Positions 31,950 through 46,175 are shown, counted from the first letter of the stretch. The stretch is DNA of 64,000 bases from Spirochaetia bacterium (GCA_965225855.1 CBDDCK010000005.1:864001-928000); one strand, 5' to 3'. A program made the numbers and translations. The notes: generated by a model not told the origin, from the letters alone.

Positions 31950-32202
31950 TACGGAGCTGCGCAGATACCCTGAAGGCGCACGGTAAAAAAATACGCCAAT
32001 CATCGCGACCACAGCCCCATTTTTATGCTAAGTGCTTCGCTCCAAAATGCTAACAAAAAGCTTGCCATTAGTTATACTTGATCGTCCAACAAAACTATAG
32101 TATAATTATCGAAAAATCTTAGTGATTCTTCATCGGTTATACTTGATCGTCCAACAAAACGGGAATTATGTATAAAAGGGTACTAAAATAAATTGTGAAA
32201 AA

Positions 32203-33141
32203 ATGACAATAGTAGTTGACAATAAATATACAAAAATGTACTCTATAAATATGGAAAATTCAATAATAGATTTATTAGATACATTCAAAGATGACAAAGC
32301 ATGTGAGCAGTATTTTCTTGAAAAGAGGTTTGCCAATGGTGTATGTTGCTTATATTGTAAACATGATAAAGTATATAAAATACAAGGCGTCAATAAATGC
32401 CAGAGATATAAATGCGCCAGATGCAAGAAACGATTTAGTGCGCTTACAGGTACTATTTTTGAGAGCACCAAGTTAGGATTGCGAAAGTGGTTTTTAGCAT
32501 TTCATTTAATACAAAATTCAAGTAAAGGAATTAGCAGCATACAATTATCAAAACACCTAAAAATAACCCAACGTACAGCGTGGTTTATTTTACACAGATT
32601 TAGAGAAGTGGCAGAAGATAAGTTTCAGATGGTTAGTGGAAGTGTAGAAATCGATGAAACATTTATAGGCGGAAAAGAAGGCAATAAGCATGCAAGTAAA
32701 AAGCTTGGGTATCATGGAACAGAAGGTAAAACTGCAGTTATGGGCGCAATATCACGGCAAGACAAGCAAGTAGTAGCGTCTCCTGTAAAAGAAGTATCGT
32801 ATAGCTCTGTAGAAATATTTAGGAAGCATAATATAGCAAAAGGAAGTATAATCTACTCTGATCAATGCAAAGCCTATCGTGGGCAGTCTGATTTTAAAGT
32901 CCATCATAGTCTGAAAGAATTTGTTAGGGATGGCCATATTCATACCAACTGTATCGAGAGCTTTTGGGCGATACTAAAAAGAGGGTATATCGGTATCTAT
33001 CACTGGTGGAGTGTTAAGCACTTACACAGATATATCAATGAATTTACTTTTAGATTTAATCATAAACAAATATCTTTAGCAACACTGCTGGAATATACCG
33101 TCAATAAAAGACTGAAATATAGAGAGCTTACTGATGGCTAA
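32203..33141 (+). CDS. IS1595-family (ISXO2-like) DDE transposase
   Basis: Zn ribbon CLYC...CARC, GISSIQL HTH, VEIDETFIGGK, YSD, HTNCIESFW, HLHRYINEFTFRFN; start may be 32251. Confidence 0.93.
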   Translation: MTIVVDNKYTKMYSINMENSIIDLLDTFKDDKACEQYFLEKRFANGVCCLYCKHDKVYKIQGVNKCQRYKCARCKKRFSALTGTIFESTKLGLRKWFLAFHLIQNSSKGISSIQLSKHLKITQRTAWFILHRFREVAEDKFQMVSGSVEIDETFIGGKEGNKHASKKLGYHGTEGKTAVMGAISRQDKQVVASPVKEVSYSSVEIFRKHNIAKGSIIYSDQCKAYRGQSDFKVHHSLKEFVRDGHIHTNCIESFWAILKRGYIGIYHWWSVKHLHRYINEFTFRFNHKQISLATLLEYTVNKRLKYRELTDG

Positions 33142-33292
33142 AAAACAACAAAGATTCAAAATAAACATGTCTTTCAATGATTTCTTGAATCAAGTTATCG
33201 ATAAGGCCGATATACAATCAGGCAAAGACAAAGAAGTTATTACGACCAAAGATAATAGCAAAATTACTTTACACAAAAGCTTGCCAAAATGA
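33134..33292 (+). CDS. 52-aa IS passenger protein (below the ORF-track cutoff)
   Basis: MAKKQQRFKINMSFNDFLNQVIDKADIQ...LPK; overlaps the transposase stop, and its TGA overlaps the MTase ATG (ATGA). Confidence 0.6.
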   Translation: MAKKQQRFKINMSFNDFLNQVIDKADIQSGKDKEVITTKDNSKITLHKSLPK

Positions 33293-34804
33293 GAATCAAT
33301 CATCCAATAAACCCTCATAATTGGCGGAATCTATTGTATAGAGCCGATTGTAAGTATGCTCTACAACATTTAATCAGCAATCAAGTAACAGTAGACTTAA
33401 TTTATTTAGACCCACCGTTTAACTCAAACAGAGTCTATAATATGCTCTATTCACAAAATAAAAACAATCACGGCGCAAGCCAAAAAGCTTTCCACGATAT
33501 GTGGACAATTACCAGCCAAACACGTGAAGTTTGTTTAGCTTTTCAAGATAGAATGAAAAGTGAACAAGAAATATCACCTATTGTCAAATCTTTGTTGGAA
33601 ACTTGGACTAATTCTTTGATAAACGGGGGGAAGAAGTAATCAGATGATAGTATATCTGATTTATATGGTTGAAAGACTGATATTAATGAGAAAAGTGCTA
33701 AAGGACACAGGAAGCATCTATCTACATTGCGACCCTACAGCCAGCCACTACCTTAAAATAATTATGGACGGGATATTTGGCCATGATAATTTTGTAAATG
33801 AAATTATTTGGAGTTATAAAAGTGGTGGGGCATCTAAAAAAAGATGGGCAAAGAAACATGATGTAATTTTAATGTATTCTAAAACAAAAGATAACTTTGT
33901 ATTTTGTACACAATACTATAAAAGGTACTTATTAAGAGATGAACAGACAGGCAAAGAACTTGGCAAAGACCCTAGAGAGCATGTTAAATATTATAAAGAC
34001 GGGATAGGAACTTATCGAATAAACATTGAAAGAGATATTTGGGAAATTCCTATTATTAGTCCTAATAGCAAAACTGAAAGAATGGGCTACCCCACACAGA
34101 AACCGCTAGCATTATTAGATAAAATTATCAAAGCTTCATGTCCCGAAGACGGCACTGTATTAGACCCATTTTGTGGTTGTGGCACGACTTTAGAGAGTGC
34201 TATTATCAATAGAAAAAATTGGATAGGTGTGGATATAAGCAATAATGCTGTAGAAGTAATGCAAAATAGAATAGCCAATACCCATACAGGAGCAAAATAT
34301 GATTTAATACACGGAAACCCTGAAAACTTAATGGATTATCAAAAACTCAATGCCTATGACAAACAAGAGTGGTTAATCAATACTATTGGTGGCTTCCCCA
34401 ACCCTAAAAAGTCTGGCGATAGCGGAGTCGATGGTGATCTTACCGTACATGGCGGTTTTGATAAAACTGGTAGAGATATATGGCATAAGGTGATTTTTAG
34501 TGTAAAAACTGGCAATCAATGTGAGCCTAAATTTTTGAGAGAACTTATAGGAACAATGAAAATACATAATGCTACTTATGGGGGTTTGATACTGGATAAA
34601 GACCCAAGCGAAGCAATGCTTAAGACGATATATAACAGCAAAAAAATTACCTACCAATATGCCAAAGAATTGCCACCACAATATTTTGATACCTTACAGA
34701 TATTGACAAGCCAACAAATAATAGATGGTGCTAAATTTGACTTACCCCCTACCATAAATAAAATTAAAAAATATCGGCAAGTCCCTACACTAGATTTTGG
34801 TTAG
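33289..34804 (+). pseudogene. Beta-class N4/N6 DNA methyltransferase with a C-terminal Mrr-like/PD-(D/E)XK domain, frameshifted at a G6 tract
   Basis: DPPF in 33289-33639; GSIYLHCD, YPTQKP, DPFCGCGT and D-GVDG...SVK in 33644-34804; removing one G at 33625-33630 fuses them (INGGRSNQMIVYL), giving about 504 aa. Confidence 0.85.
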
Positions 34805-37800
34805 TCCGCTTTTATACATAATTACCCAGCAAAACTATAGTATAATAAAATATATTTTATGATTGGGTTCGCAACGGTTATACTTGATCGTCCAACAAAA
34901 CTATAGTATAATGGTAATGGTATCATCTAGTCTTATTGTCATGTTATACTTGATCGTCCAACAAAACTATAGTATAATTAACACAAGCGTTTAGAACAAT
35001 GACAACCGGTTATACTTGATCGTCCAACAAAACTATAGTATAATTAATCTTACAAGTGGCTTATCTGTAAGTAAGTTATACTTGATCGTCCAACAAAACT
35101 ATAGTATAATGCTAATTCGCAAGGGCAAAGTGGCATGACTGTTATACTTGATCGTCCAACAAAACTATAGTATAATTTAGACTGTATAGAGCAATATACG
35201 CAAGAGGTTATACTTGATCGTCCAACAAAACTATAGTATAATGCCCTTGCGTGTGGCCTTGGTGCGTAAGATGTTATACTTGATCGTCCAACAAAACTAT
35301 AGTATAATACAAAACAACGGAAGCCCTCGGCTTATTTGGTTATACTTGATCGTCCAACAAAACTATAGTATAATGCATTGGCTGCCCCAGCATTAGCAGC
35401 CAATGTTATACTTGATCGTCCAACAAAACTATAGTATAATATGTCTTGCCAAGCCCTTGCTGACGAAATAGTTATACTTGATCGTCCAACAAAACTATAG
35501 TATAATACAAAACAACGGAAGCCCTCGGCTTATTTGGTTATACTTGATCGTCCAACAAAACTATAGTATAATGCATTGGCTGCCCCAGCATTAGCAGCCA
35601 ATGTTATACTTGATCGTCCAACAAAACTATAGTATAATTCTAATATCTGCGGTATTAGGAATATTCCAGTTATACTTGATCGTCCAACAAAACTATAGTA
35701 TAATAACTGTAATTGCTTAGAAGTGAGGATATTTGTTATACTTGATCGTCCAACAAAACTATAGTATAATTAAACAAGTCAAAAAAATCCCCCCTTACTA
35801 GTTATACTTGATCGTCCAACAAAACTATAGTATAATAAAATATCGATATGATTATCGAAATGCTTAGTTATACTTGATCGTCCAACAAAACTATAGTATA
35901 ATTTTATGCAAGGACGAGCAAGGCTTGCTTATGTTATACTTGATCGTCCAACAAAACTATAGTATAATCATAGTCATCTTGGGGAGCCGTAACTTGAAGT
36001 TATACTTGATCGTCCAACAAAACTATAGTATAATCATTATGACGAGGTAATGTTGTGAAATTAAGTTATACTTGATCGTCCAACAAAACTATAGTATAAT
36101 TACTTTCATTTTTGATACTCCTAAAAAAAAGTTATACTTGATCGTCCAACAAAACTATAGTATAATTTAGCCCCCGATTCCAAGAGCAGCTTAACCGTTA
36201 TACTTGATCGTCCAACAAAACTATAGTATAATCAAACAGCAACCGTTGACAAAAGATCATTTGTTATACTTGATCGTCCAACAAAACTATAGTATAATAA
36301 TTGGGAAAAAATCTTATTCGAATATATAGTTATACTTGATCGTCCAACAAAACTATAGTATAATACCCATGTCACCCGTGAGTAATACAGAGTGGTTATA
36401 CTTGATCGTCCAACAAAACTATAGTATAATCAATAAATTCAGGTCGTTGCAAACGAGCATGTTATACTTGATCGTCCAACAAAACTATAGTATAATGACA
36501 GCTTGCTAAACGCACAAATTGCTCTTGTTATACTTGATCGTCCAACAAAACTATAGTATAATAGCCCAATAATGATAGAAAATCATTCTTCCGTTATACT
36601 TGATCGTCCAACAAAACTATAGTATAATTACCAGAAGTTTGAAGAACTTCCGAAATAAGTTATACTTGATCGTCCAACAAAACTATAGTATAATAGCAAC
36701 AGTCGCACCAACTTGAGCGGTAGAGTTATACTTGATCGTCCAACAAAACTATAGTATAATAAAAACTTAAAAAGAAGATAGGAGAAAAAAGTTATACTTG
36801 ATCGTCCAACAAAACTATAGTATAATGAGTCGAACCTTGGCAAAATTAACAAAAAAGTTATACTTGATCGTCCAACAAAACTATAGTATAATAAAACTTA
36901 AAAAGAAGATAGGAGGAAGAAAGTTATACTTGATCGTCCAACAAAACTATAGTATAATATCAAATGTAATATATCATCTCGCAAACTTGTTATACTTGAT
37001 CGTCCAACAAAACTATAGTATAATATCCCCTCAGAAAAATTCTGGGAATTATGGGTTATACTTGATCGTCCAACAAAACTATAGTATAATATCTTGCCTG
37101 AAACTAAAGAAGCCATGCAAGTTATACTTGATCGTCCAACAAAACTATAGTATAATTATTTTCAGTGGTTACCGTGTAACCATAAGGTTATACTTGATCG
37201 TCCAACAAAACTATAGTATAATAATAGCCAAATTCTGAACCTTCTATTTCTTGTTATACTTGATCGTCCAACAAAACTATAGTATAATTAAAGCTTAGTA
37301 AGCTTATCTAATCTATTAGTTATACTTGATCGTCCAACAAAACTATAGTATAATTCTTCCCAGCTTTACTGCCAAGGGTATTTTGTTATACTTGATCGTC
37401 CAACAAAACTATAGTATAATAAGCAGCCGATAATATACAGTAGAAGATTAGTTATACTTGATCGTCCAACAAAACTATAGTATAATCAAAAAACTTAAAA
37501 AGAAGATAGGAAAAAAGTTATACTTGATCGTCCAACAAAACTATAGTATAATGATTGGTAAATTTTTCCATCCATCAGGAGCGTTATACTTGATCGTCCA
37601 ACAAAACTATAGTATAATAGTCCTCATTATGACTAGTCTGATGAGTAGGTTATACTTGATCGTCCAACAAAACTATAGTATAATAAAATATCGTGCAAAC
37701 TACATACACGGTAAGTTATACTTGATCGTCCAACAAAACTATAGTATAATTTTTTTCTTTAGCACTTCTATCTATGTTTGTTATACTTGATCGTCCAACA

Positions 37801-38553
37801 AAACTATAGTATAATAACGCTCACCAAGACCATTGGAACAAGAAGGTTATACTTGATCGTCCAACAAAACTATAGTATAATATATAAAATCTGCTGAAAA
37901 CACTCAAATCCGTTATACTTGATCGTCCAACAAAACTATAGTATAATAAATGGAAAACAAAGGTGCTTACTTTTCCAGTTATACTTGATCGTCCAACAAA
38001 ACTATAGTATAATAAATTCAGTTGATCATCACTTAGCTCTGCCGTTATACTTGATCGTCCAACAAAACTATAGTATAATCAATTGGATAACCACAGATGA
38101 AGGAAGAAAGTTATACTTGATCGTCCAACAAAACTATAGTATAATTACGCAACTTATGGCCATTATATTGAAATTGTTATACTTGATCGTCCAACAAAAC
38201 TATAGTATAATAGTTGGCCAGCCAAAGCTTTGCGTGGTTTTGTTATACTTGATCGTCCAACAAAACTATAGTATAATAATACTCGTTGTAGATAAAATTA
38301 TACGCTTGTTATACTTGATCGTCCAACAAAACTATAGTATAATTCACCAACATTAGCACCAGTATAACCACTAGTTATACTTGATCGTCCAACAAAACTA
38401 TAGTATAATAAATAATGCACATATGCAAATATATCATGTGTTATACTTGATCGTCCAACAAAACTATAGTATAATACGACCTAGCAGGTCAAGACATAGC
38501 AACATGTTATACTTGATCGTCCAACAAAACTATAGTATAATTGTGTCTGGCTT

Positions 38554-38590
38554 AAATAGTGGCAAAGTAAGTCTTTGCCACTATTTTTTT
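38554..38590 (+). terminator. Intrinsic terminator after the last CRISPR repeat
   Basis: AAATAGTGGCAAAG-TAAGT-CTTTGCCACTATTT followed by a T run. Confidence 0.8.
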
Positions 38591-38616
38591 CGTCCAAAAA
38601 GCAGATTATCAGGCGC

Positions 38617-38985
38617 TTAAAATAATAAATAACAGCCATTTTTTTCTAAATCTTGTTGTTCATTTCCAACTAAATTCGGGCCGATAAAGTTTTCGGCCAT
38701 CGTGTACTGCCTATCGGTAATGTAAAATATGCTAATTTGCCCTTCGGGGGGAATGCCGTATTTTATCCTCTGGGCTACGATCTTCGCTGCGGCCAAATTG
38801 CGGCACGGCTTAATGTAGACGGAAAATTGCTTCATGCAAAAACCGTTGTCCAGCAAATGGTTGCGGAACTGGGTGGCCAAGCGCATTTGTCTCTTAGTCT
38901 GTACGGGCAGGTCAAACATGCAGAGCAACCACATCATGGTCCAGCCCGTGGGCCGCCTATACTTGCTCTTTTTTTGTGTCAGCAT
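38617..38985 (-). CDS. cas2: CRISPR-associated endonuclease Cas2 (type II)
   Basis: MW--CMFDLPV-TK...FRNHLLDNGF-MKQFSVY...ITDRQY. Confidence 0.95.
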   Translation of the reverse strand: MLTQKKSKYRRPTGWTMMWLLCMFDLPVQTKRQMRLATQFRNHLLDNGFCMKQFSVYIKPCRNLAAAKIVAQRIKYGIPPEGQISIFYITDRQYTMAENFIGPNLVGNEQQDLEKNGCYLLF

Positions 38986-41900
38986 GGCAAAAGACCTTGT
39001 GCTTGCGCTTCATTTTGCCAAACGGGCTTAGCTCGACCTTGCGGGCTCCGTGCTCGCGGAAAAAGCTTCCCCCCTTTACTAACAAAGCTGGGGCCAAGTA
39101 CTTTTGTTTCTTAGCCAGCACACTGTTGCGCCCATCGTGGGCCAGGCAAAAGCCGATTGCATTATCTTTAACTGTCAACTTGCATACCACCACTAAGCAA
39201 CGTTCTGCGCTGACCAAACTTCGATATTCTTCGGGCGTATTCAATTCCAGCAAGTCCCCTTGGTGTAGGGAATACTGCAACTGTAGGCCTTTTTGCCGCC
39301 ACTGCGTCACAAAATTTTTGTCGTTGGCGTCAAAGCGGCGAATCACTTCGATAATGCTATCGCCCTTTATATCCAAGACGATATCCGCGCGGTGGTTATT
39401 GCCGCTTTGATAATATAGCCCGTGCTTGGGCACGGTTATTAGAGATTTGTTACACTCAAAGTAATCTATCTTATGTGCGATCGGCTTTGCGCCGTCTGCC
39501 CTGTTGTGTTGGGCCAGCGCGATGGCTTTAGCCATAATGTGATTTTCGCCAATCTCTTTAACTTTTTTGCCCTCGGCCTTTTGCTCTTCCCGCTCTTGCT
39601 CTAATTGCTCCCGGGCCCTATCCCAGTTGGCCGCGATGCCTTGCTGGGCATCGGCCAAGTCTTGCCGCGCTTTGGCGATGCGCTCGTGCCACTCTGGGGG
39701 AAATTTACAAAACTGGCCGACATCTTTGCGCAAATCGGCTTGCGTTTTGATCAGCTCTTCTACCTTGCGCTTATAGACCGTCAAGGGGTCGCCCGCCGCA
39801 GGTTCTTCTTCTTTCTTTTGGAAAAACTGGCCGTATTGCTTCTCTTGAGCCTTGGTTTGGGCAATATAGCCCAGCACTATGCGCCCCGTCTCTTTGTGCA
39901 ATTGGCCCTGGGGGCTGTGCTCGGCCTTGTGAGAAACTTTTACTTCATCGAGTACGGCAACAACTTGCTCGACAAAATCTGCGCCGCTTGCGTAGCAGGA
40001 GGTAAGGGGGCACAGCTCTCTCTTCGGCAGCTTTCTGCCAATTTTGTCTGCCCGCGTAATCTTCTGTATTAAGCTGCGGGTAGACAGCGCGACAACGATG
40101 GCATCTAGCGCGTGGTGGCGATGGTCCATGCGCGGCTTGTCCAGCCATTCGGGGTTGCACACTAAATCTTTTTTATACCAACCCTTCTCGTCTACTGGAT
40201 GATAACTAACTTCTTCGGTATCCCTCTTTATCCAATGCACCTCGTTTACGGTGTTTTCGGGCAACTTCTGGCGTATTTTCTCGTCGGTAACGGGCAATTT
40301 TAGGTATCTGGGTATGTGAAACCCCATCAATTGATACTCTAGGCCTAGCAAATTCCATATGCGGCGCAGCTTGGCTGTACACTGGCCGCGTATGGGCACA
40401 ATGCGCACCGAATGGTCCCCACTTTTACTTGCGTCCGCAGGGGAAGTCGCCCTCCCTAGCTCTTGGGCCGCAATCCTTTGTGGGGCCAAGATCGCTCGCA
40501 AATAGCGCAGGGCCAGCTTGGCCATATAGCGAGTGTCCGTCAAATAGCGGCTCGTGCCATCCATATCCCCGTCACTTTCAAAAATTTCTTGGGCATCTGC
40601 TTCAAAGCGCCAAGCCTTATTTTCAGGCAAGCTTTCGGCCGCCTCTAAAATGGCTTTCAGCTTTTCGGGGCTGCGGCTCTTCTGCAAATACGGATACGGA
40701 TAGCTATCGCCCTTGTCTCGGTTGTCGTTGCGGCTGATCAAACATAGGTTTGCCGGCGTATCGCTGCCGCCCCTGGCTTGCGGTATCAAATGCTCTATTT
40801 CAAAGCCCTCAAAGCTTTGCGGTATATTTTTGGTGCTATCAAAGGCGTCCTTCCACTTCTGTTCCTTGGCCAATTTGTACTTTAAGATATTTGTCCCATT
40901 TACTACCATATTGCGCTCGACTAAGTATTTGCGGGCCTCATCGTTGATTTCTCGGTTTTTCTTTTGCTGCTTTTCTATCTCCTTCCTCTTATTTTTTGAA
41001 CGGCCCACATCGCGGCCAACTTCCACGTGAATGGCCTGCGGCCGGCCGTAAATGCGCACAATATCGTTTACCACTAGGCGCAACTGATTGAGCATCATGT
41101 GCACCGCCGGGTTGGCCAATTTGCCATACTTTTGCTCTTCGGGGTTTAGGCTCGAATTGCGCTCAGCACTCCACTGGGCTACCGGTTGGGTATCTCTGGT
41201 CAAGATTTGCCCATAGTAAGGCAAGGCTTCCCATTGGGCCTGCTGGTCACGTGCAGCCAGGTCGGCAGCGCGATAGCGCGGGTCTTCCTTGGCCAATTGG
41301 TCGGTAATTGCGCGCTGTGTCGTGGCCTGCTCGGCGCACGCAAAACCTTTGAGCACGGCCTTTGTGGCCGTCTTGCCTAAATTGCCGCGACCCTTGGGAA
41401 ACAAATGGAGCACTTCTGCGGCCTCCTCTGTGTTTTCTAGGCACAGCCGCCGCTTTAAATTTTGCAAGAGCTGCTCTTCGGTATACAAACGCCTCTGAAC
41501 ATCTTCGGGGTTTACTGGGTTGGCAATAAAGTCTACCAGTTCTTCCAAATCCCCTTCACAGAGCTTCATACCCTGAAACTTTTCGTTCGCATACAGATAG
41601 GGCTCAATGCCTTTCTTATCGGCTAGCACAATCTTGCTACTCTTGTCCAAGCCCAAGGCTTCTTGAATTTTCGTTGGCGTTGCCTTTTGGCCCTTCATTA
41701 GCAAAGTTTCGATGACGATATTTATTTGTTTTATCTCTAACAATGACTTTTCTAACGATGACTTTTTTGTCTCAAAAGTTAGGGCTGGCTCATCCCATAA
41801 CTCTAACGATGACTTTTTTGTCCCCCAGCGGCGGATGCGAATATTGTGCGCCGCTTCGCAAATGCGGTGCCTTTCGGCTAGCGGGTGGGCCTTGGGCAGG

Positions 41901-42667
41901 CGCTCTTCTTCGGAGATAAAGATGCAATTGCCCGTGGCATAGGGCATGGGCGGGTGCTCAAAAAATAGTATATCATAAATTTTTTGCCTTAAAGACTCGT
42001 CTTGCAAGGGGGCAAAGTGCGGCGCTTGGCAAGCCCAAATCTGGCGAAATTCCTCTCGTACCAAATAGCGGGGAATCGCATAGTCCACCTCTTGGGCCTG
42101 CTTGCGCTGGCGCACTATCTTTTTATTTTTCAGGCGTTCAAAGAAATATTGGCCAAGCGTCTGTAGGCCCTTCTCTTTTAGCCGTTGTGGCAGAACTTTA
42201 TAGGGGTTATCGGGGTTATCACGCACTTCTTTGCCCTCTTTTTGGCTCTTTTCTTTCAGCTCTTGTTCAGCGGAAATAAAATCTGCGCCGCGGTGTTTGG
42301 CCAAATGCATCAAAATGCGCCCCAATTGATGGCTACTCTCTAGCTTTTTTCGCACGGCCGCGTCTCGCAAATAATACACACATTGCTTGCGCAATTGCTT
42401 AGTGCCTGCTGCAATTTTACCTTGAGGGCAGCAATTCCACAGGCCCGCCTCGTACAAGGCCCTACCCAGGAGTTCTAAGCGCTTTTTCGTGCGCACAGTA
42501 TTCGTGCGCGCAGTGCGCTGCAAACGCCTAGCCTCCGCCCCTTCACTAACCTCAAATATCCTAGCACCCGCATCGCAAATCTTCACGGCCTTATTGCACT
42601 CATCTAATTCCACGACTGCCGAGCCGATCGAAGAGACACCTAAATCTAAACCCAAGCGATAACGCAT
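38957..42667 (-). CDS. cas9: Type II-C-like Cas9 (~1236 aa)
   Basis: RuvC-I LGLDLGVSSIG; HLAKHRG; NPAVH; RuvC-II IHVEVGRD; HNH EHLIP...N...N-DKG; DTRY; RuvC-III HRHHALDAIVVA; alternative starts at 42679/42685. Confidence 0.96.
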   Translation of the reverse strand: MRYRLGLDLGVSSIGSAVVELDECNKAVKICDAGARIFEVSEGAEARRLQRTARTNTVRTKKRLELLGRALYEAGLWNCCPQGKIAAGTKQLRKQCVYYLRDAAVRKKLESSHQLGRILMHLAKHRGADFISAEQELKEKSQKEGKEVRDNPDNPYKVLPQRLKEKGLQTLGQYFFERLKNKKIVRQRKQAQEVDYAIPRYLVREEFRQIWACQAPHFAPLQDESLRQKIYDILFFEHPPMPYATGNCIFISEEERLPKAHPLAERHRICEAAHNIRIRRWGTKKSSLELWDEPALTFETKKSSLEKSLLEIKQINIVIETLLMKGQKATPTKIQEALGLDKSSKIVLADKKGIEPYLYANEKFQGMKLCEGDLEELVDFIANPVNPEDVQRRLYTEEQLLQNLKRRLCLENTEEAAEVLHLFPKGRGNLGKTATKAVLKGFACAEQATTQRAITDQLAKEDPRYRAADLAARDQQAQWEALPYYGQILTRDTQPVAQWSAERNSSLNPEEQKYGKLANPAVHMMLNQLRLVVNDIVRIYGRPQAIHVEVGRDVGRSKNKRKEIEKQQKKNREINDEARKYLVERNMVVNGTNILKYKLAKEQKWKDAFDSTKNIPQSFEGFEIEHLIPQARGGSDTPANLCLISRNDNRDKGDSYPYPYLQKSRSPEKLKAILEAAESLPENKAWRFEADAQEIFESDGDMDGTSRYLTDTRYMAKLALRYLRAILAPQRIAAQELGRATSPADASKSGDHSVRIVPIRGQCTAKLRRIWNLLGLEYQLMGFHIPRYLKLPVTDEKIRQKLPENTVNEVHWIKRDTEEVSYHPVDEKGWYKKDLVCNPEWLDKPRMDHRHHALDAIVVALSTRSLIQKITRADKIGRKLPKRELCPLTSCYASGADFVEQVVAVLDEVKVSHKAEHSPQGQLHKETGRIVLGYIAQTKAQEKQYGQFFQKKEEEPAAGDPLTVYKRKVEELIKTQADLRKDVGQFCKFPPEWHERIAKARQDLADAQQGIAANWDRAREQLEQEREEQKAEGKKVKEIGENHIMAKAIALAQHNRADGAKPIAHKIDYFECNKSLITVPKHGLYYQSGNNHRADIVLDIKGDSIIEVIRRFDANDKNFVTQWRQKGLQLQYSLHQGDLLELNTPEEYRSLVSAERCLVVVCKLTVKDNAIGFCLAHDGRNSVLAKKQKYLAPALLVKGGSFFREHGARKVELSPFGKMKRKHKVFCHADTKKEQV

Positions 42668-42742
42668 ATATCTCTCCATGCCCACATTTTCGCCCTTCCC
42701 CTCAATGCGGTAAAAAATAATAATTATTTTTCTATTTTACAC

Positions 42743-42771
42743 TTGACAGCAAAAAGTGCAAGTATTATAGT
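42743..42771 (+). promoter_or_regulatory. Sigma70-type promoter for the tracrRNA
   Basis: TTGACA (42743)-17 bp-TATAGT (42766). Confidence 0.75.
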
Positions 42772-42777
42772 GGCTTT

Positions 42778-42910
42778 TGTATTGGGCCGGGCACTCTCAT
42801 ACTATAGTTTTGTTGGACGATCAAGACTATTATAATAAAGGTCATTGCGATTATTTCGCTTTGTGCCCAAAAATGCGGGCTCTGTTTTTGGAAACAGAGC
42901 CCTTTATCTT
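42778..42910 (+). ncRNA. tracrRNA (divergent from cas9)
   Basis: 27-nt perfect anti-repeat 42799-42825, 5-nt bulge, TATAAT lower stem 42831-42836; hairpin GCGA-TTATT-TCGC; terminator GGGCTCTGTTT/AAACAGAGCCC 42877-42902 plus Ts. Confidence 0.92.
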
Positions 42911-43061: not shown

Positions 43062-43347
43062 TCAGCGGTGCTTTTGTCTTGGCGTGCTGTCTTGGCGTGC
43101 CAAGTTTTGAATTTGCGCAATTTCGTATGCGTCTAGCGGGCTGTGGCTTTTGCGGTAGCGTTCTTGTAAGGCTTGGCATTCTAGGCTGGCTTGGTGATAC
43201 CATTCATAAGCATTTAAGGCTTTGTCTTTGTATTCTGAAACTTCCCGCTCCAGCTTGTAAAAGCCCGGCTTGCCAATCGATGGCAAAACTTCGTGGGTTA
43301 CCCAGCGCTTAAAGCTTTGGCCTCTGGTTTGGTATTGCCACAGTCTC
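43062..43347 (-). pseudogene. BRO-N/antirepressor remnant fused to the dispersed repeat
   Basis: FKRWVTHEVLPSI-K-G-Y is the end motif of BRO-N; the upstream part of ORF 43062-43550 is translated repeat DNA. Confidence 0.7.
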
Positions 43348-43556
43348 GTTGGAAAATCCCCAGGTTGCAAATCAAAAAAGCTAGTAAGGTTTTGACTGAA
43401 AACCTTATTAGCTTTTTTTGGAAACCTTACTAGCTTTTTGAGACTACGGCCCGTTACCATGATATTTTGATACTTGATGCCATATTGTTGCCCAATTACT
43501 GCCGACAATGACCCATAGGCCGAAAAACAAAAATTTTTTACTTGTTCCATTTGTGG
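43348..43556. repeat. Dispersed repeat, copy 2 (direct repeat of 29022-29257)
   Basis: High identity to copy 1 with small indels and an inverted palindrome loop. Confidence 0.88.
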
Positions 43557-43774
43557 CCAATTTGATATTTACCCATTATTTTTAATGTTTAGATGTTTAG
43601 ATATTTAGCCCCCAATTAGGGCTTGTTCTGCAATATCAAAAGCAGCTTTGCGGGTTTGGGCCTCTTGGCAAGTTTTGGCAAAAATGTTGTTGCCCCGTAT
43701 GATAAGCTAATAAGCCAAGCGGTGCGGCAGCGTATCGCAACAGTTCTCAAGTAAAATTAAAGTGGGTTAGTTGG

Positions 43775-44239
43775 TTATTTAAGTATGATAGAATTAAGTT
43801 TTTGGACTAACAATTTTGGTTGCTCGTGAAAATCTTTGAATAATTTATTGACCACTTCTGCTAAACTGTAACTTAATCGAAAAGTCGTTCGTATCCCATT
43901 CATATTGAATTGATCGCCATACCCCCAATTTTCTTCAAGAGCCAAATAATAGTCTTTTAAAATTTCAGGATGTTTTTGTGTCCATTTATCTTTAATAAAT
44001 GATCTCATATCACTAATGCTAGCATCATAATCAGTACCCTTAATGCTTTCGAGCGTTAATTGAATCCCTTGAAGTATCAAAGTGTCCCCATAAGCATCAT
44101 TATTACTTTTTCTTTTTCCAAACACAAACGCTTGCTCATATCTTTCCTTTATCCAATCTAGTAAGCTGGTTTGTGCTTATAGATTAGTGCCTATAATGAT
44201 GTGAATAATCAATAATAGACTGAAGCATGTTTTTTGCAT
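43775..44239 (-). pseudogene. Secreted hypothetical protein with a nonsense codon after the signal peptide
   Basis: GAGGAG RBS; MQKTCFSLLLIIHIIIGTNL*AQTSLLDW... in frame with ORF 43775-44125. Confidence 0.65.
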
Positions 44240-44262
44240 AAAAATCTTTCTCCTCTGCACTT

Positions 44263-45036
44263 TTACTTTAGGATTTCAAAATTACAAACAATTTTATTAT
44301 TTTCACAAAAATATGTGGTTGTTAGATTACCGAATGGGGTTTTTGTACTATAACATACCCCTCTTGTTCCCAAGACCCTGATACTACCGATTTAGCTCTA
44401 TTGTAAAATGCATTTGGACGCACTAATACGGGATATGTGCTTACTATCTTTCCATTTTTTTCATTGAATTGAATTAGAGTATAGCTTTCAGTTTCTTCAC
44501 TAAAGAAATATCCCAGAATTTATTCATCAATGTAATCGTCATAATTTTCGGCTGGAACTTTTAATCTGATCTTAGTTTGTATAAGCCCGTCAATTCCGTG
44601 CCTCTCATAAAAGAATGTTTTATGTTCAGTTCTGTCGGCATTCCAAAAACCACTAGATATTTTCTTAGTATTTAGTTTGTCTATAAAGTATTTCTTAAAA
44701 GCAGCATTATATTTGTCTAATGCTTTTAAAGGTTCTTCTCTTCCTAAAGGTGTTACGTCTTCTAAATTTAGAAAAAAATTCTTTAAATGGGGATAACCAT
44801 TTAACTCAAAGTCTTTTAATAAATCTAAATGTTTTTTAAAGAGCACTTCACTCATATCTTTTAAAAGAGATTCAACGACTTTAATGTCAAAGTTTTTTAG
44901 GTAATCATAGTTCTGCGTTTTCTTTTTTTGTTTCTAAAGGTTTTTCTTGCGCTTGTAGCTCTTGAGTTGGTTGTTTATTTGCTTTACAAGCTATCACCAT
45001 AGCTATAGTTAGTGTTATTAGAGTTATTTTCTTCAT
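44263..45036 (-). pseudogene. Decayed lipoprotein, paralog of 45100-45746
   Basis: MKKITLITLTIAMVIAC signal; frameshift near the A7 tract (44923-44929); in-frame stop DE*ILGYF; later GSWEQE and YFC...C match the neighbour. Confidence 0.65.
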
Positions 45037-45099
45037 TGTATATCTCCTTGTTTTCTTCCTTTAGTAGTAAAATTAAAATGGGGTAGTAATTAAAAATCT

Positions 45100-45746
45100 T
45101 TAGTTAGACGGAAGGCTCTCTTCTGGTTTAGGGCTGTTACAACTAATATCTTTGGGTTTACAAAAATATCTAATATCTACATTGAATGAATCTTCATATG
45201 AACCTTTAACATGAAGGTTATAGCTCTTGTCCTCGTCCCAACTTCCCATCCGACTATCCCCGTCTTTATCTGTAAATAAAACCCATGGCGGTGATGATAC
45301 TGGTAGTAAATCTCTGCGGTCGCTTGATTTTTTAATAGGCCCAATTGCCTCACCAATTAGTATTAGTATATAGCCTTGCGATATTGGGTCCATAAAATAG
45401 CCCACAAGATAATCTGCAACAACTGATCCACTCTTATCTACATATTGCATTATTAGAATTCTTTTAGATTGATTTAATTGTATTTGTCAAGCTCTTCTCT
45501 TTCTGATAGTAGAGAAGATTTATAGTATTCAAGCCTTGCTTCTATATGTCTCATAGTTACATTTCTGGAAGAGTTAAGAACTTTAAAACCTTCTCTCTCA
45601 AAGTAATTAAGGGCTTCCGTGAATTCTTTTTCTTGTTCAGGCGATAACGTTTCTTTAGCTTGTAAGTTTGAGCTAATAAAAACGCTAGTATTATAAGATA
45701 AAAATATAGCAATAGATATTACTATCAATAGTTTGGTTGTTTTCAT
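45100..45746 (-). pseudogene. Secreted hypothetical protein split by a 1-nt frameshift
   Basis: ORFs 45474-45746 (signal peptide) and 45100-45450 join if one A is added near 45485. Confidence 0.6.
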
Positions 45747-45944
45747 CGTATATTCCCTATGATGCTAATAAAAATAATTCGCTTATCAAAGCGTATTTGT
45801 AATTTATAACTACATAATATTTATCTTTGGCCAAGTGAAAATAAATAAAATACTAAAAATCGGCTTTATTTGTAAAAATAATTTACAAATAAACATTTAA
45901 GCGTTTTCTTTTCAAGCTAATGAATTTCTATATTATTATAAAAT

Positions 45945-46175
45945 ATGCTAGAGCAACAAATACAAGAATTATTACAACAAGGGAAAACCCAACGACAAAT
46001 TGCAGTCGAGCTGGGCACGAATGTATCTAAGATAAATCGGATTATTAAACGCTTGAAACAAGATGAAACAAAACCTAAAAAATTGAAACAAAATGAAACA
46101 CGCAATAACAAAAGTAAGGCTACAGTAAGCCAATGGCTCACTTACAAAAAAATTTTGCTAGGGTGTGTTTTTTGA
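45945..46175 (+). CDS. Small helix-turn-helix protein
   Basis: LLQQGKTQRQIAVELGTNVSKINRII. Confidence 0.7.
   Translation: MLEQQIQELLQQGKTQRQIAVELGTNVSKINRIIKRLKQDETKPKKLKQNETRNNKSKATVSQWLTYKKILLGCVF

Follow-up and report, generated by a model that had tools for sequence, protein, structure and literature searches.

A cas1-less derivative of an unusual type II-C CRISPR clade in a Spirochaetia genome

The locus described here was compared with published type II-C systems. The canonical cas9-cas1-cas2 locus of Neisseria meningitidis has no csn2 or cas4, carries a tracrRNA and 36-nt repeats with internal promoters, and is transcribed towards a cas2-side leader (PMC12477760). New spacers enter Neisseria-type II-C arrays at the cas2-side end (PMC12477760, PMC12814883), with a lone repeat acquiring best and two arrays sharing acquisition evenly (PMC12477760). 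In a type II-A structure, Cas1 reads the first four base pairs of the leader (10.1101/2025.06.12.659244); the mechanism of II-C adaptation is called largely open in papers from 2025. Integrase-less relatives include a II-C locus without cas1 in Flavobacterium branchiophilum (PMC8092290) and, in Campylobacter, orphan cas9 loci and CampyICE1, for which use of a chromosomal Cas1 has been proposed and is unproven (PMC8743540). Acquisition in trans by II-C Cas1-Cas2 has been reported into the VI-B array of Flavobacterium columnare (PMC8092290) and into VI-A arrays (10.1101/2024.10.25.620265), and was inferred from type I into type III (PMC8482600). No case between two II-C systems was found among the titles and abstract openings searched.

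The window, that is, the whole 64,000-nt stretch analysed here, comes from genome G000 (94% complete, 5 contigs) and contains a locus in the order tracrRNA, cas9, cas2, leader and array, with cas9 and cas2 on the minus strand (Table 1). This order, proposed in the earlier note, was borne out by the ORFs, the protein families and an anti-repeat at 42799-42825, which is complementary to the repeat at 27/27 positions, together with the fold and cofold of the tracrRNA. No Rfam match was found for the predicted tracrRNA, which is supported by its sequence and fold. Cas9A scored 415 bits on TIGR01865, above the cut-off, while the Cas9d model remained below its own, and its best PDB matches were II-C Cas9s. 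The database call for this protein (P0001) has 1236 residues and starts six codons downstream of the ORF start. In that numbering, the RuvC residues D8, E549, H852 and D855 and the HNH residues H626, N640 and N649 are invariant in an alignment of 24 homologues, so that both motifs are indeed intact, as had been noted. Cas2A bears the long C-terminal tail of its clade, ending in LLF, and its gene shares 29 nt with the end of cas9, compared with an overlap of 23-26 nt in the five relatives examined, and lies 75 bp from the first repeat. Both distances agree with the initial description, as does the absence of cas1, csn2 and cas4 from the locus according to the ORF list and family scans; Cas1 is absent from the entire window, and genome-wide a single Pfam Cas1 exceeds the cut-off, at C5:677165-677884. 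The locus is an incomplete, II-C-derived one and no complete II-C member, with cas2 present and cas1 absent.

Table 1. Position of the CRISPR features, in window numbering unless genome and contig are given.
Feature	Position	Strand	Description
Gap between gntP-like permease gene and terminal repeat	31950..32070	.	121 bp; no cas1 remnant
Distal array piece	32071..32160	+	Perfect terminal repeat, 29-nt spacer, first part of split repeat
IS1595-family element	32161..34827	+	Inserted in a 58th repeat, splitting it
Main CRISPR array (array A)	34877..38541	+	56 identical repeats of 36 nt; 55 spacers, all 30 nt long except for one of 29 nt
Leader with terminator-like hairpin (38554-38586)	38542..38616	+	Hairpin at same position in relatives
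cas2	38617..38985	-	PF09827 and TIGR01573; intact ORF
cas9 (Cas9A), type II-C-like	38957..42685	-	ORF; TIGR01865; intact catalytic motifs
Predicted tracrRNA	42786..42910, ends approximate	+	Divergent from cas9; anti-repeat, two hairpins, terminator-like stem
Complete II-C locus B	G000:C5:662644-681457		Different repeat, 202 perfect 36-nt copies, 30-nt spacers
Type V-A locus	G000:C5:1065917-1094684		1568-aa Cas12a, tandem 1202-aa Cas12a3-like protein, cas4 stump
Lone perfect A repeat with variant A leader hairpin	G000:C5:1152750-1152830		No spacer

With the Neisseria system the locus shares a Cas9 with a Cas2, the lack of csn2 and cas4, the tracrRNA and the 36-nt repeats, here with putative internal promoters and predicted array transcription towards a cas2-side leader; it differs in that cas2 overlaps cas9 and cas1 is absent. 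As in the F. branchiophilum and Campylobacter loci, a II-C Cas9 and an array occur without an integrase. However, cas2 is also missing from the Campylobacter cases, and CampyICE1 arrays hold some three spacers on average, whereas cas2 and 57 spacers are present here. Beside the tracrRNA, a low-GC island (43062-46175) contains an antirepressor fragment, four small ORFs and a small HTH gene. The small ORFs (43775-45746) matched nothing in Pfam or PHROG over the cut-off, and an anti-CRISPR role considered for them is unsupported.

A long array with 57 identical intact repeats had been reported. The 57 exact copies stand, but the array is interrupted: 56 copies are contiguous, one lies at 32071, and between them the IS1595 element splits a further repeat, flanked by an 8-bp target duplication with one mismatch. 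The element encodes a transposase (32203-33141) and a passenger DNA methyltransferase in two ORFs (33289-33639 and 33644-34804), split near a G-run at ~33624; sequencing runs X1 and X2 also contain a variant in which the G-run is longer. Spacers s6 and s9 are identical, as are s7 and s10, and s28, s30 and s39 (36761-37516) are offset variants of one target. A promoter-like TTGATC-17-TATAAT site was present in 4/4 repeats scanned (a consensus match only), and a terminator-like hairpin follows the last repeat. By analogy with Neisseria, we infer that the leader marks the growth end of the array.

To place the locus among its relatives, 78 related loci were fetched, three of which had no cas2 in the fetched DNA, leaving 75 for assessment. 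In 73 of these, cas2 directly follows cas9; the remaining two are canonical and, at 26-28% identity, fall outside the clade. Nineteen of the 73 are uninformative because their sequence stops within 1 kb. Each of the 54 informative loci carries cas1 (TIGR03639 in the relatives), inverted beyond the array in 31, inverted after cas2 in 22 (among them L065, which really consists of a two-repeat array and then cas1) and upstream of cas9 in one; since many of the gut loci are almost the same, the 54 do not count as independent events. In the clade, cas1 is never found between cas9 and cas2, and in all 54 loci it lies within a few kb of them. This layout, with cas1 uncoupled from cas9-cas2, was not found in a literature search of mainly open-access papers. 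Cas9A and Cas2A group with this split-adaptation II-C clade (L026-L101; FastTree, SH-like support only), sharing with it the cas9-cas2 overlap, a GTTATA-type repeat and the leader hairpin beside cas2, at identities of 39-44% for Cas9 and 47-61% for Cas2. Unlike the clade, the window has no cas1, and its Cas9 forms a separate branch with the nearest homologue, P0002 (54%). Of note, two clade loci, L046 with a truncated cas2 and L081 with frameshifted cas9 and cas1, represent either decay or assembly errors.

These neighbourhoods bear on the stable cas9-cas2 architecture favoured earlier. The adjacency of the two genes is indeed a stable architecture in the clade, and cas1 accompanies every informative relative. 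The search for a deletion scar at the cas9/cas2 junction was likewise directed at the wrong place, since the cas1 of the clade is displaced and mostly inverted beyond the array. The seamless junction is the norm of the clade and therefore provides no argument for a cas1-free design, and deletion of cas1 from between cas9 and cas2 was ruled out for the same reason. Misassembly of the junction, put forward as a possible refutation, was ruled out too, and we regard its probability as negligible: the leader, cas2, cas9 and tracrRNA lie together on a 4865-nt contig from run X1 (which may be the source sample), a 151-nt contig (depth 3.2) from run X4, an independent study, spans the junction, and relatives show the same overlap.

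The best reading, to which we assign a probability of roughly 0.65, is that cas1 was recently lost and the array is frozen. The earlier alternatives were deletion of cas1 or provision of a Cas1 in trans; the evidence leans to loss, although a Cas1 that could act in trans does exist in the genome. Loss is favoured by the presence of cas1 in every informative clade locus and, as to its site, by the order cas2-leader-array, which is that of the group with cas1 beyond the array and points to the far array end. At this end the IS1595 element and gntP are now found; past the distal repeat, where that group has cas1, come 121 bp and the permease gene, and the gap is the position held by cas1 in gut-alphaproteobacterial relatives. 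In X1 and X2, which represent one sample, single contigs connect gntP directly with the repeat at 32071, and no clade-type cas1 remnant was found in the assembly by tblastn with 18 clade proteins, by nhmmer or by hmmsearch --max over every six-frame fragment of at least 20 aa, the only scoring sequence being Cas1B, the Cas1 of locus B; both observations argue for loss. The terminal repeat is perfect, versus worn beside cas1 in 6/7 relatives shown, which fits truncation, but array B, which has a cas1, likewise ends in a perfect distal repeat, which weakens this argument. Against simple loss, the loci obtained include no close relative that retains cas1 and shows a breakpoint; the branch of the window Cas9 and P0002 may represent a cas1-free subclade.

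A cognate cas1 that acts at a distance might instead have escaped the assembly, either within a genome stretch absent from the contigs or on an overlooked replicon. With 94% completeness in 5 contigs, and with three positions of cas1 within the clade, such a gene has some room, but we consider it improbable, as cas1 lies within a few kb of cas9/cas2 in all informative relatives and both locus flanks are contiguous in read-derived contigs.

Under the reading of recent loss, the locus would derive from a clade member with cas9 and cas2 together and cas1 apart, from whose far array end cas1 was likely lost during or after the horizontal arrival of the cassette, leaving 57 spacers as a likely frozen set predicted to be still usable by Cas9. 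The survival of cas2 would be due to its fusion to the cas9 stop and its distance from the deletion, and requires no function. If Neisseria-type II-C biology applies, the promoter of each repeat would give rise to + strand crRNA pairing with the tracrRNA, Cas9 would cleave targets, Microviridae among them, next to a PAM near N5G(R), and new spacers would formerly have entered at the cas2-side leader. The cassette probably arrived by horizontal transfer, given a GC content of 51% vs 40% in the genome, the antirepressor fragment next to the tracrRNA and the absence of this Cas9 from all 400 other genomes of the phylum searched (E<=1e-60); this absence also counts for recent loss. The Cas9s of congeners match Cas9A at 29-43% and over parts only. 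As to the insertion site, the related genomes G001-G003 show no conservation upstream of parA, and neither a close gntP orthologue nor an empty site was found in them. In one congener (L121; G002:C1:662000-681999), a lone 1192-aa cas9 was seen, and cas1, cas2 and an array were not seen in 20 kb.

The genome-wide search for Cas1 that had been proposed as a check returned one Cas1 over the cut-off, alongside two intact Cas2 and one Cas2 remnant. This Cas1B sits in locus B, a canonical cas9-cas1-cas2 locus of type II-C at a distance of ~225 kb. A duplicated remnant of repeat, leader and cas2 3' end separates cas2 of locus B from its array, which suggests array replacement. Six of its spacers are perfectly self-targeting, one of them matching a multi-copy chromosomal sequence (114 sites at <=3 mismatches), and spacers t65/t66 and t199 resemble V-A repeats, possibly having come from phage-borne repeats or mini-arrays. 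In the third locus, of type V-A, the 1202-aa protein matches PDB entries 9hlx/21we (E 1e-52); cas1, cas2, the leader and most of cas4 are lost, the cas4 stump of the genome being cut off at the V-A array and part of this locus, and 323/323 repeats are perfect. Perfect repeats were accordingly rejected as a sign of activity, and the persistence of this array without cas1, cas2 and leader also counts for array A being frozen.

Further evidence bears on the frozen state from both sides. The lone A repeat with leader at C5:1152750 is empty, which counts for freezing, a lone repeat being the best Neisseria substrate; the argument is weakened because its first 3 leader nt, which Cas1 reads, differ from those of the array A leader. 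The gene beside it is presumably a broken phage-type antitoxin. The third-newest A spacer overlaps the 88th-newest B spacer, which likewise supports freezing, although this is a single pair and, among four B-V pairs, one departs from the order. On the opposing side, strains X4 and X5 each carry one spacer absent from G000, which could reflect later acquisition, their contigs breaking at repeats and stopping short of the distal end; Cas2A is undecayed, with 0 differences over 349 nt vs X4. Separately, a spacer seen in X4 resembles the A repeat, possibly through origin from phage-borne repeats or mini-arrays, and an X4 contig at window 38506-38535 joins the first 30 nt of the A repeat to sequence upstream of recA (cf. 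G000:C4:76205), a junction that is ectopic or chimeric and absent from G000.

Spacer targets were used to approach the PAM. Of the 56 distinct A spacers, three had matches in 78 microvirus loci at <=6 mismatches, compared with 0/56 shuffled ones, and s26 matches the capsid gene of OM522998.1 at 30/30 positions. At homologous sites (85 loci, <=7 mismatches), position +6 is G in 18/19 for s23, 9/10 for s26 and 9/10 for s51, although the best match of s51 has T; the genomic frequency of G is 0.20. The perfect self-matches of s43 (C4:45188) and s47 (C5:1987510) both have G at +6. These flanks hint at a PAM near N5G(R) for Cas9A, an estimate resting on five spacers and site counts inflated by capsid conservation. 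No spacer targets were found in five related genomes, neither s51 nor the A repeat had an exact match in IMG/VR, and the spacer overlaps yielded no 3' flank for A spacers. Matches of array B spacers to phages were mostly due to chance. Phage-derived B flanks have mostly C or T at +6 (t6, t94, t101, t103, t109, t147), with the exceptions of t124 (A), t91 (variable) and t142 (G in 7/13 sites, C in the best match). Among the six self-targeting B spacers, four have G at +6, at ranks 76, 73, 55 and 40 from the leader, and the two oldest do not.

This distribution is pertinent to cross-talk between the two II-C systems, in which Cas1B would work with Cas9A and/or Cas2A; we regard this as possible yet distinctly less probable than recent loss. 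Its variants, in which array A still grows or prespacers selected by Cas9A are filed into array B, are similarly tentative. In its favour, the genome has one Cas1 and two intact Cas2, the A and B repeats are both 36 nt long with 30-nt spacers, their leader-side ends are identical at 6/7 positions, and II-C Cas1-Cas2 is known to fill a VI-B array (PMC8092290). All five A spacers with a flank, and the four self-targeting B spacers mentioned, all of these among the 76 newest, show +6 G, in an array whose phage-derived spacers mostly have a pyrimidine there. However, Cas1B is only ~30-35% identical to the clade Cas1, the far repeat ends of A and B match at 4/7 positions, their leader starts differ, the lone A repeat with its leader is empty, and the 60 leader-end V-A spacers measure 25-29 nt and thus lack the 30-nt II-C signature. 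The +6 G pattern is moreover post hoc and drawn from few spacers, t142 itself has G in 7/13 homologous sites, the best match of s51 has T, and self-targets are filtered by survival. A spacers keep +6 G down to rank 4, with the same caveat for s51, which fits acquisition by the own system and also Cas9A guiding Cas1B. As in the F. columnare VI-B and VI-A cases, an integrase-less array here accompanies a complete II-C locus, but those clients are Cas13 arrays with a shared PAM, whereas the putative client here is a second Cas9 with its own Cas2 and an apparently different PAM.

Lastly, the whole locus might be a dead or silenced relic, capable of neither acquisition nor interference, which we consider very improbable. 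The perfect self-matches of s43 and s47 with +6 G, the IS insertion and a near-neutral ratio of changes vs X4 (25 non-synonymous and 10 synonymous codon changes in Cas9A, representing 40 of 67 listed differences) are compatible with a relic, and because of the self-targets and this ratio the activity of Cas9 is only predicted. On the other hand, every ORF is intact, as are the catalytic residues, the pairing of the tracrRNA and the promoter-like sites of the repeats, and the flanks of s43 (G at +5) and s47 (T or C at +7) deviate from the phage flanks. The X4 differences also cluster in the PAM-interacting region (14/35 altered codons at aa >=1160), a pattern that diversification would produce; at window 39078-39185, at least 18 substitutions in 108 nt separate G000 from X4, which suggests a domain exchange.

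Cas9 loci commonly lose their adaptation genes, which makes recent cas1 loss with a frozen array a modest reading. The locus lacks cas1 and derives from an unusual II-C clade in which cas1 is uncoupled from cas9-cas2. It is possible, though not the likeliest reading, that one Cas1 serves two unrelated II-C systems here, Cas9A and its fused Cas2 plugging into Cas1B after cas1 loss. If so, N5G-flanked prespacers would enter array A, or be misfiled into array B as harmless, tolerated self-targeting spacers; this would be a natural case of II-C-to-II-C adaptation cross-talk and would give a reason for the clade to keep cas2 with cas9 and not with cas1. The genome represents a natural experiment, with three large arrays of 57, 202 and 323 perfect repeats, two Cas9, two intact Cas2 and one Cas1, and allows a direct test of which partners determine leader specificity and the choice of PAM in II-C adaptation.
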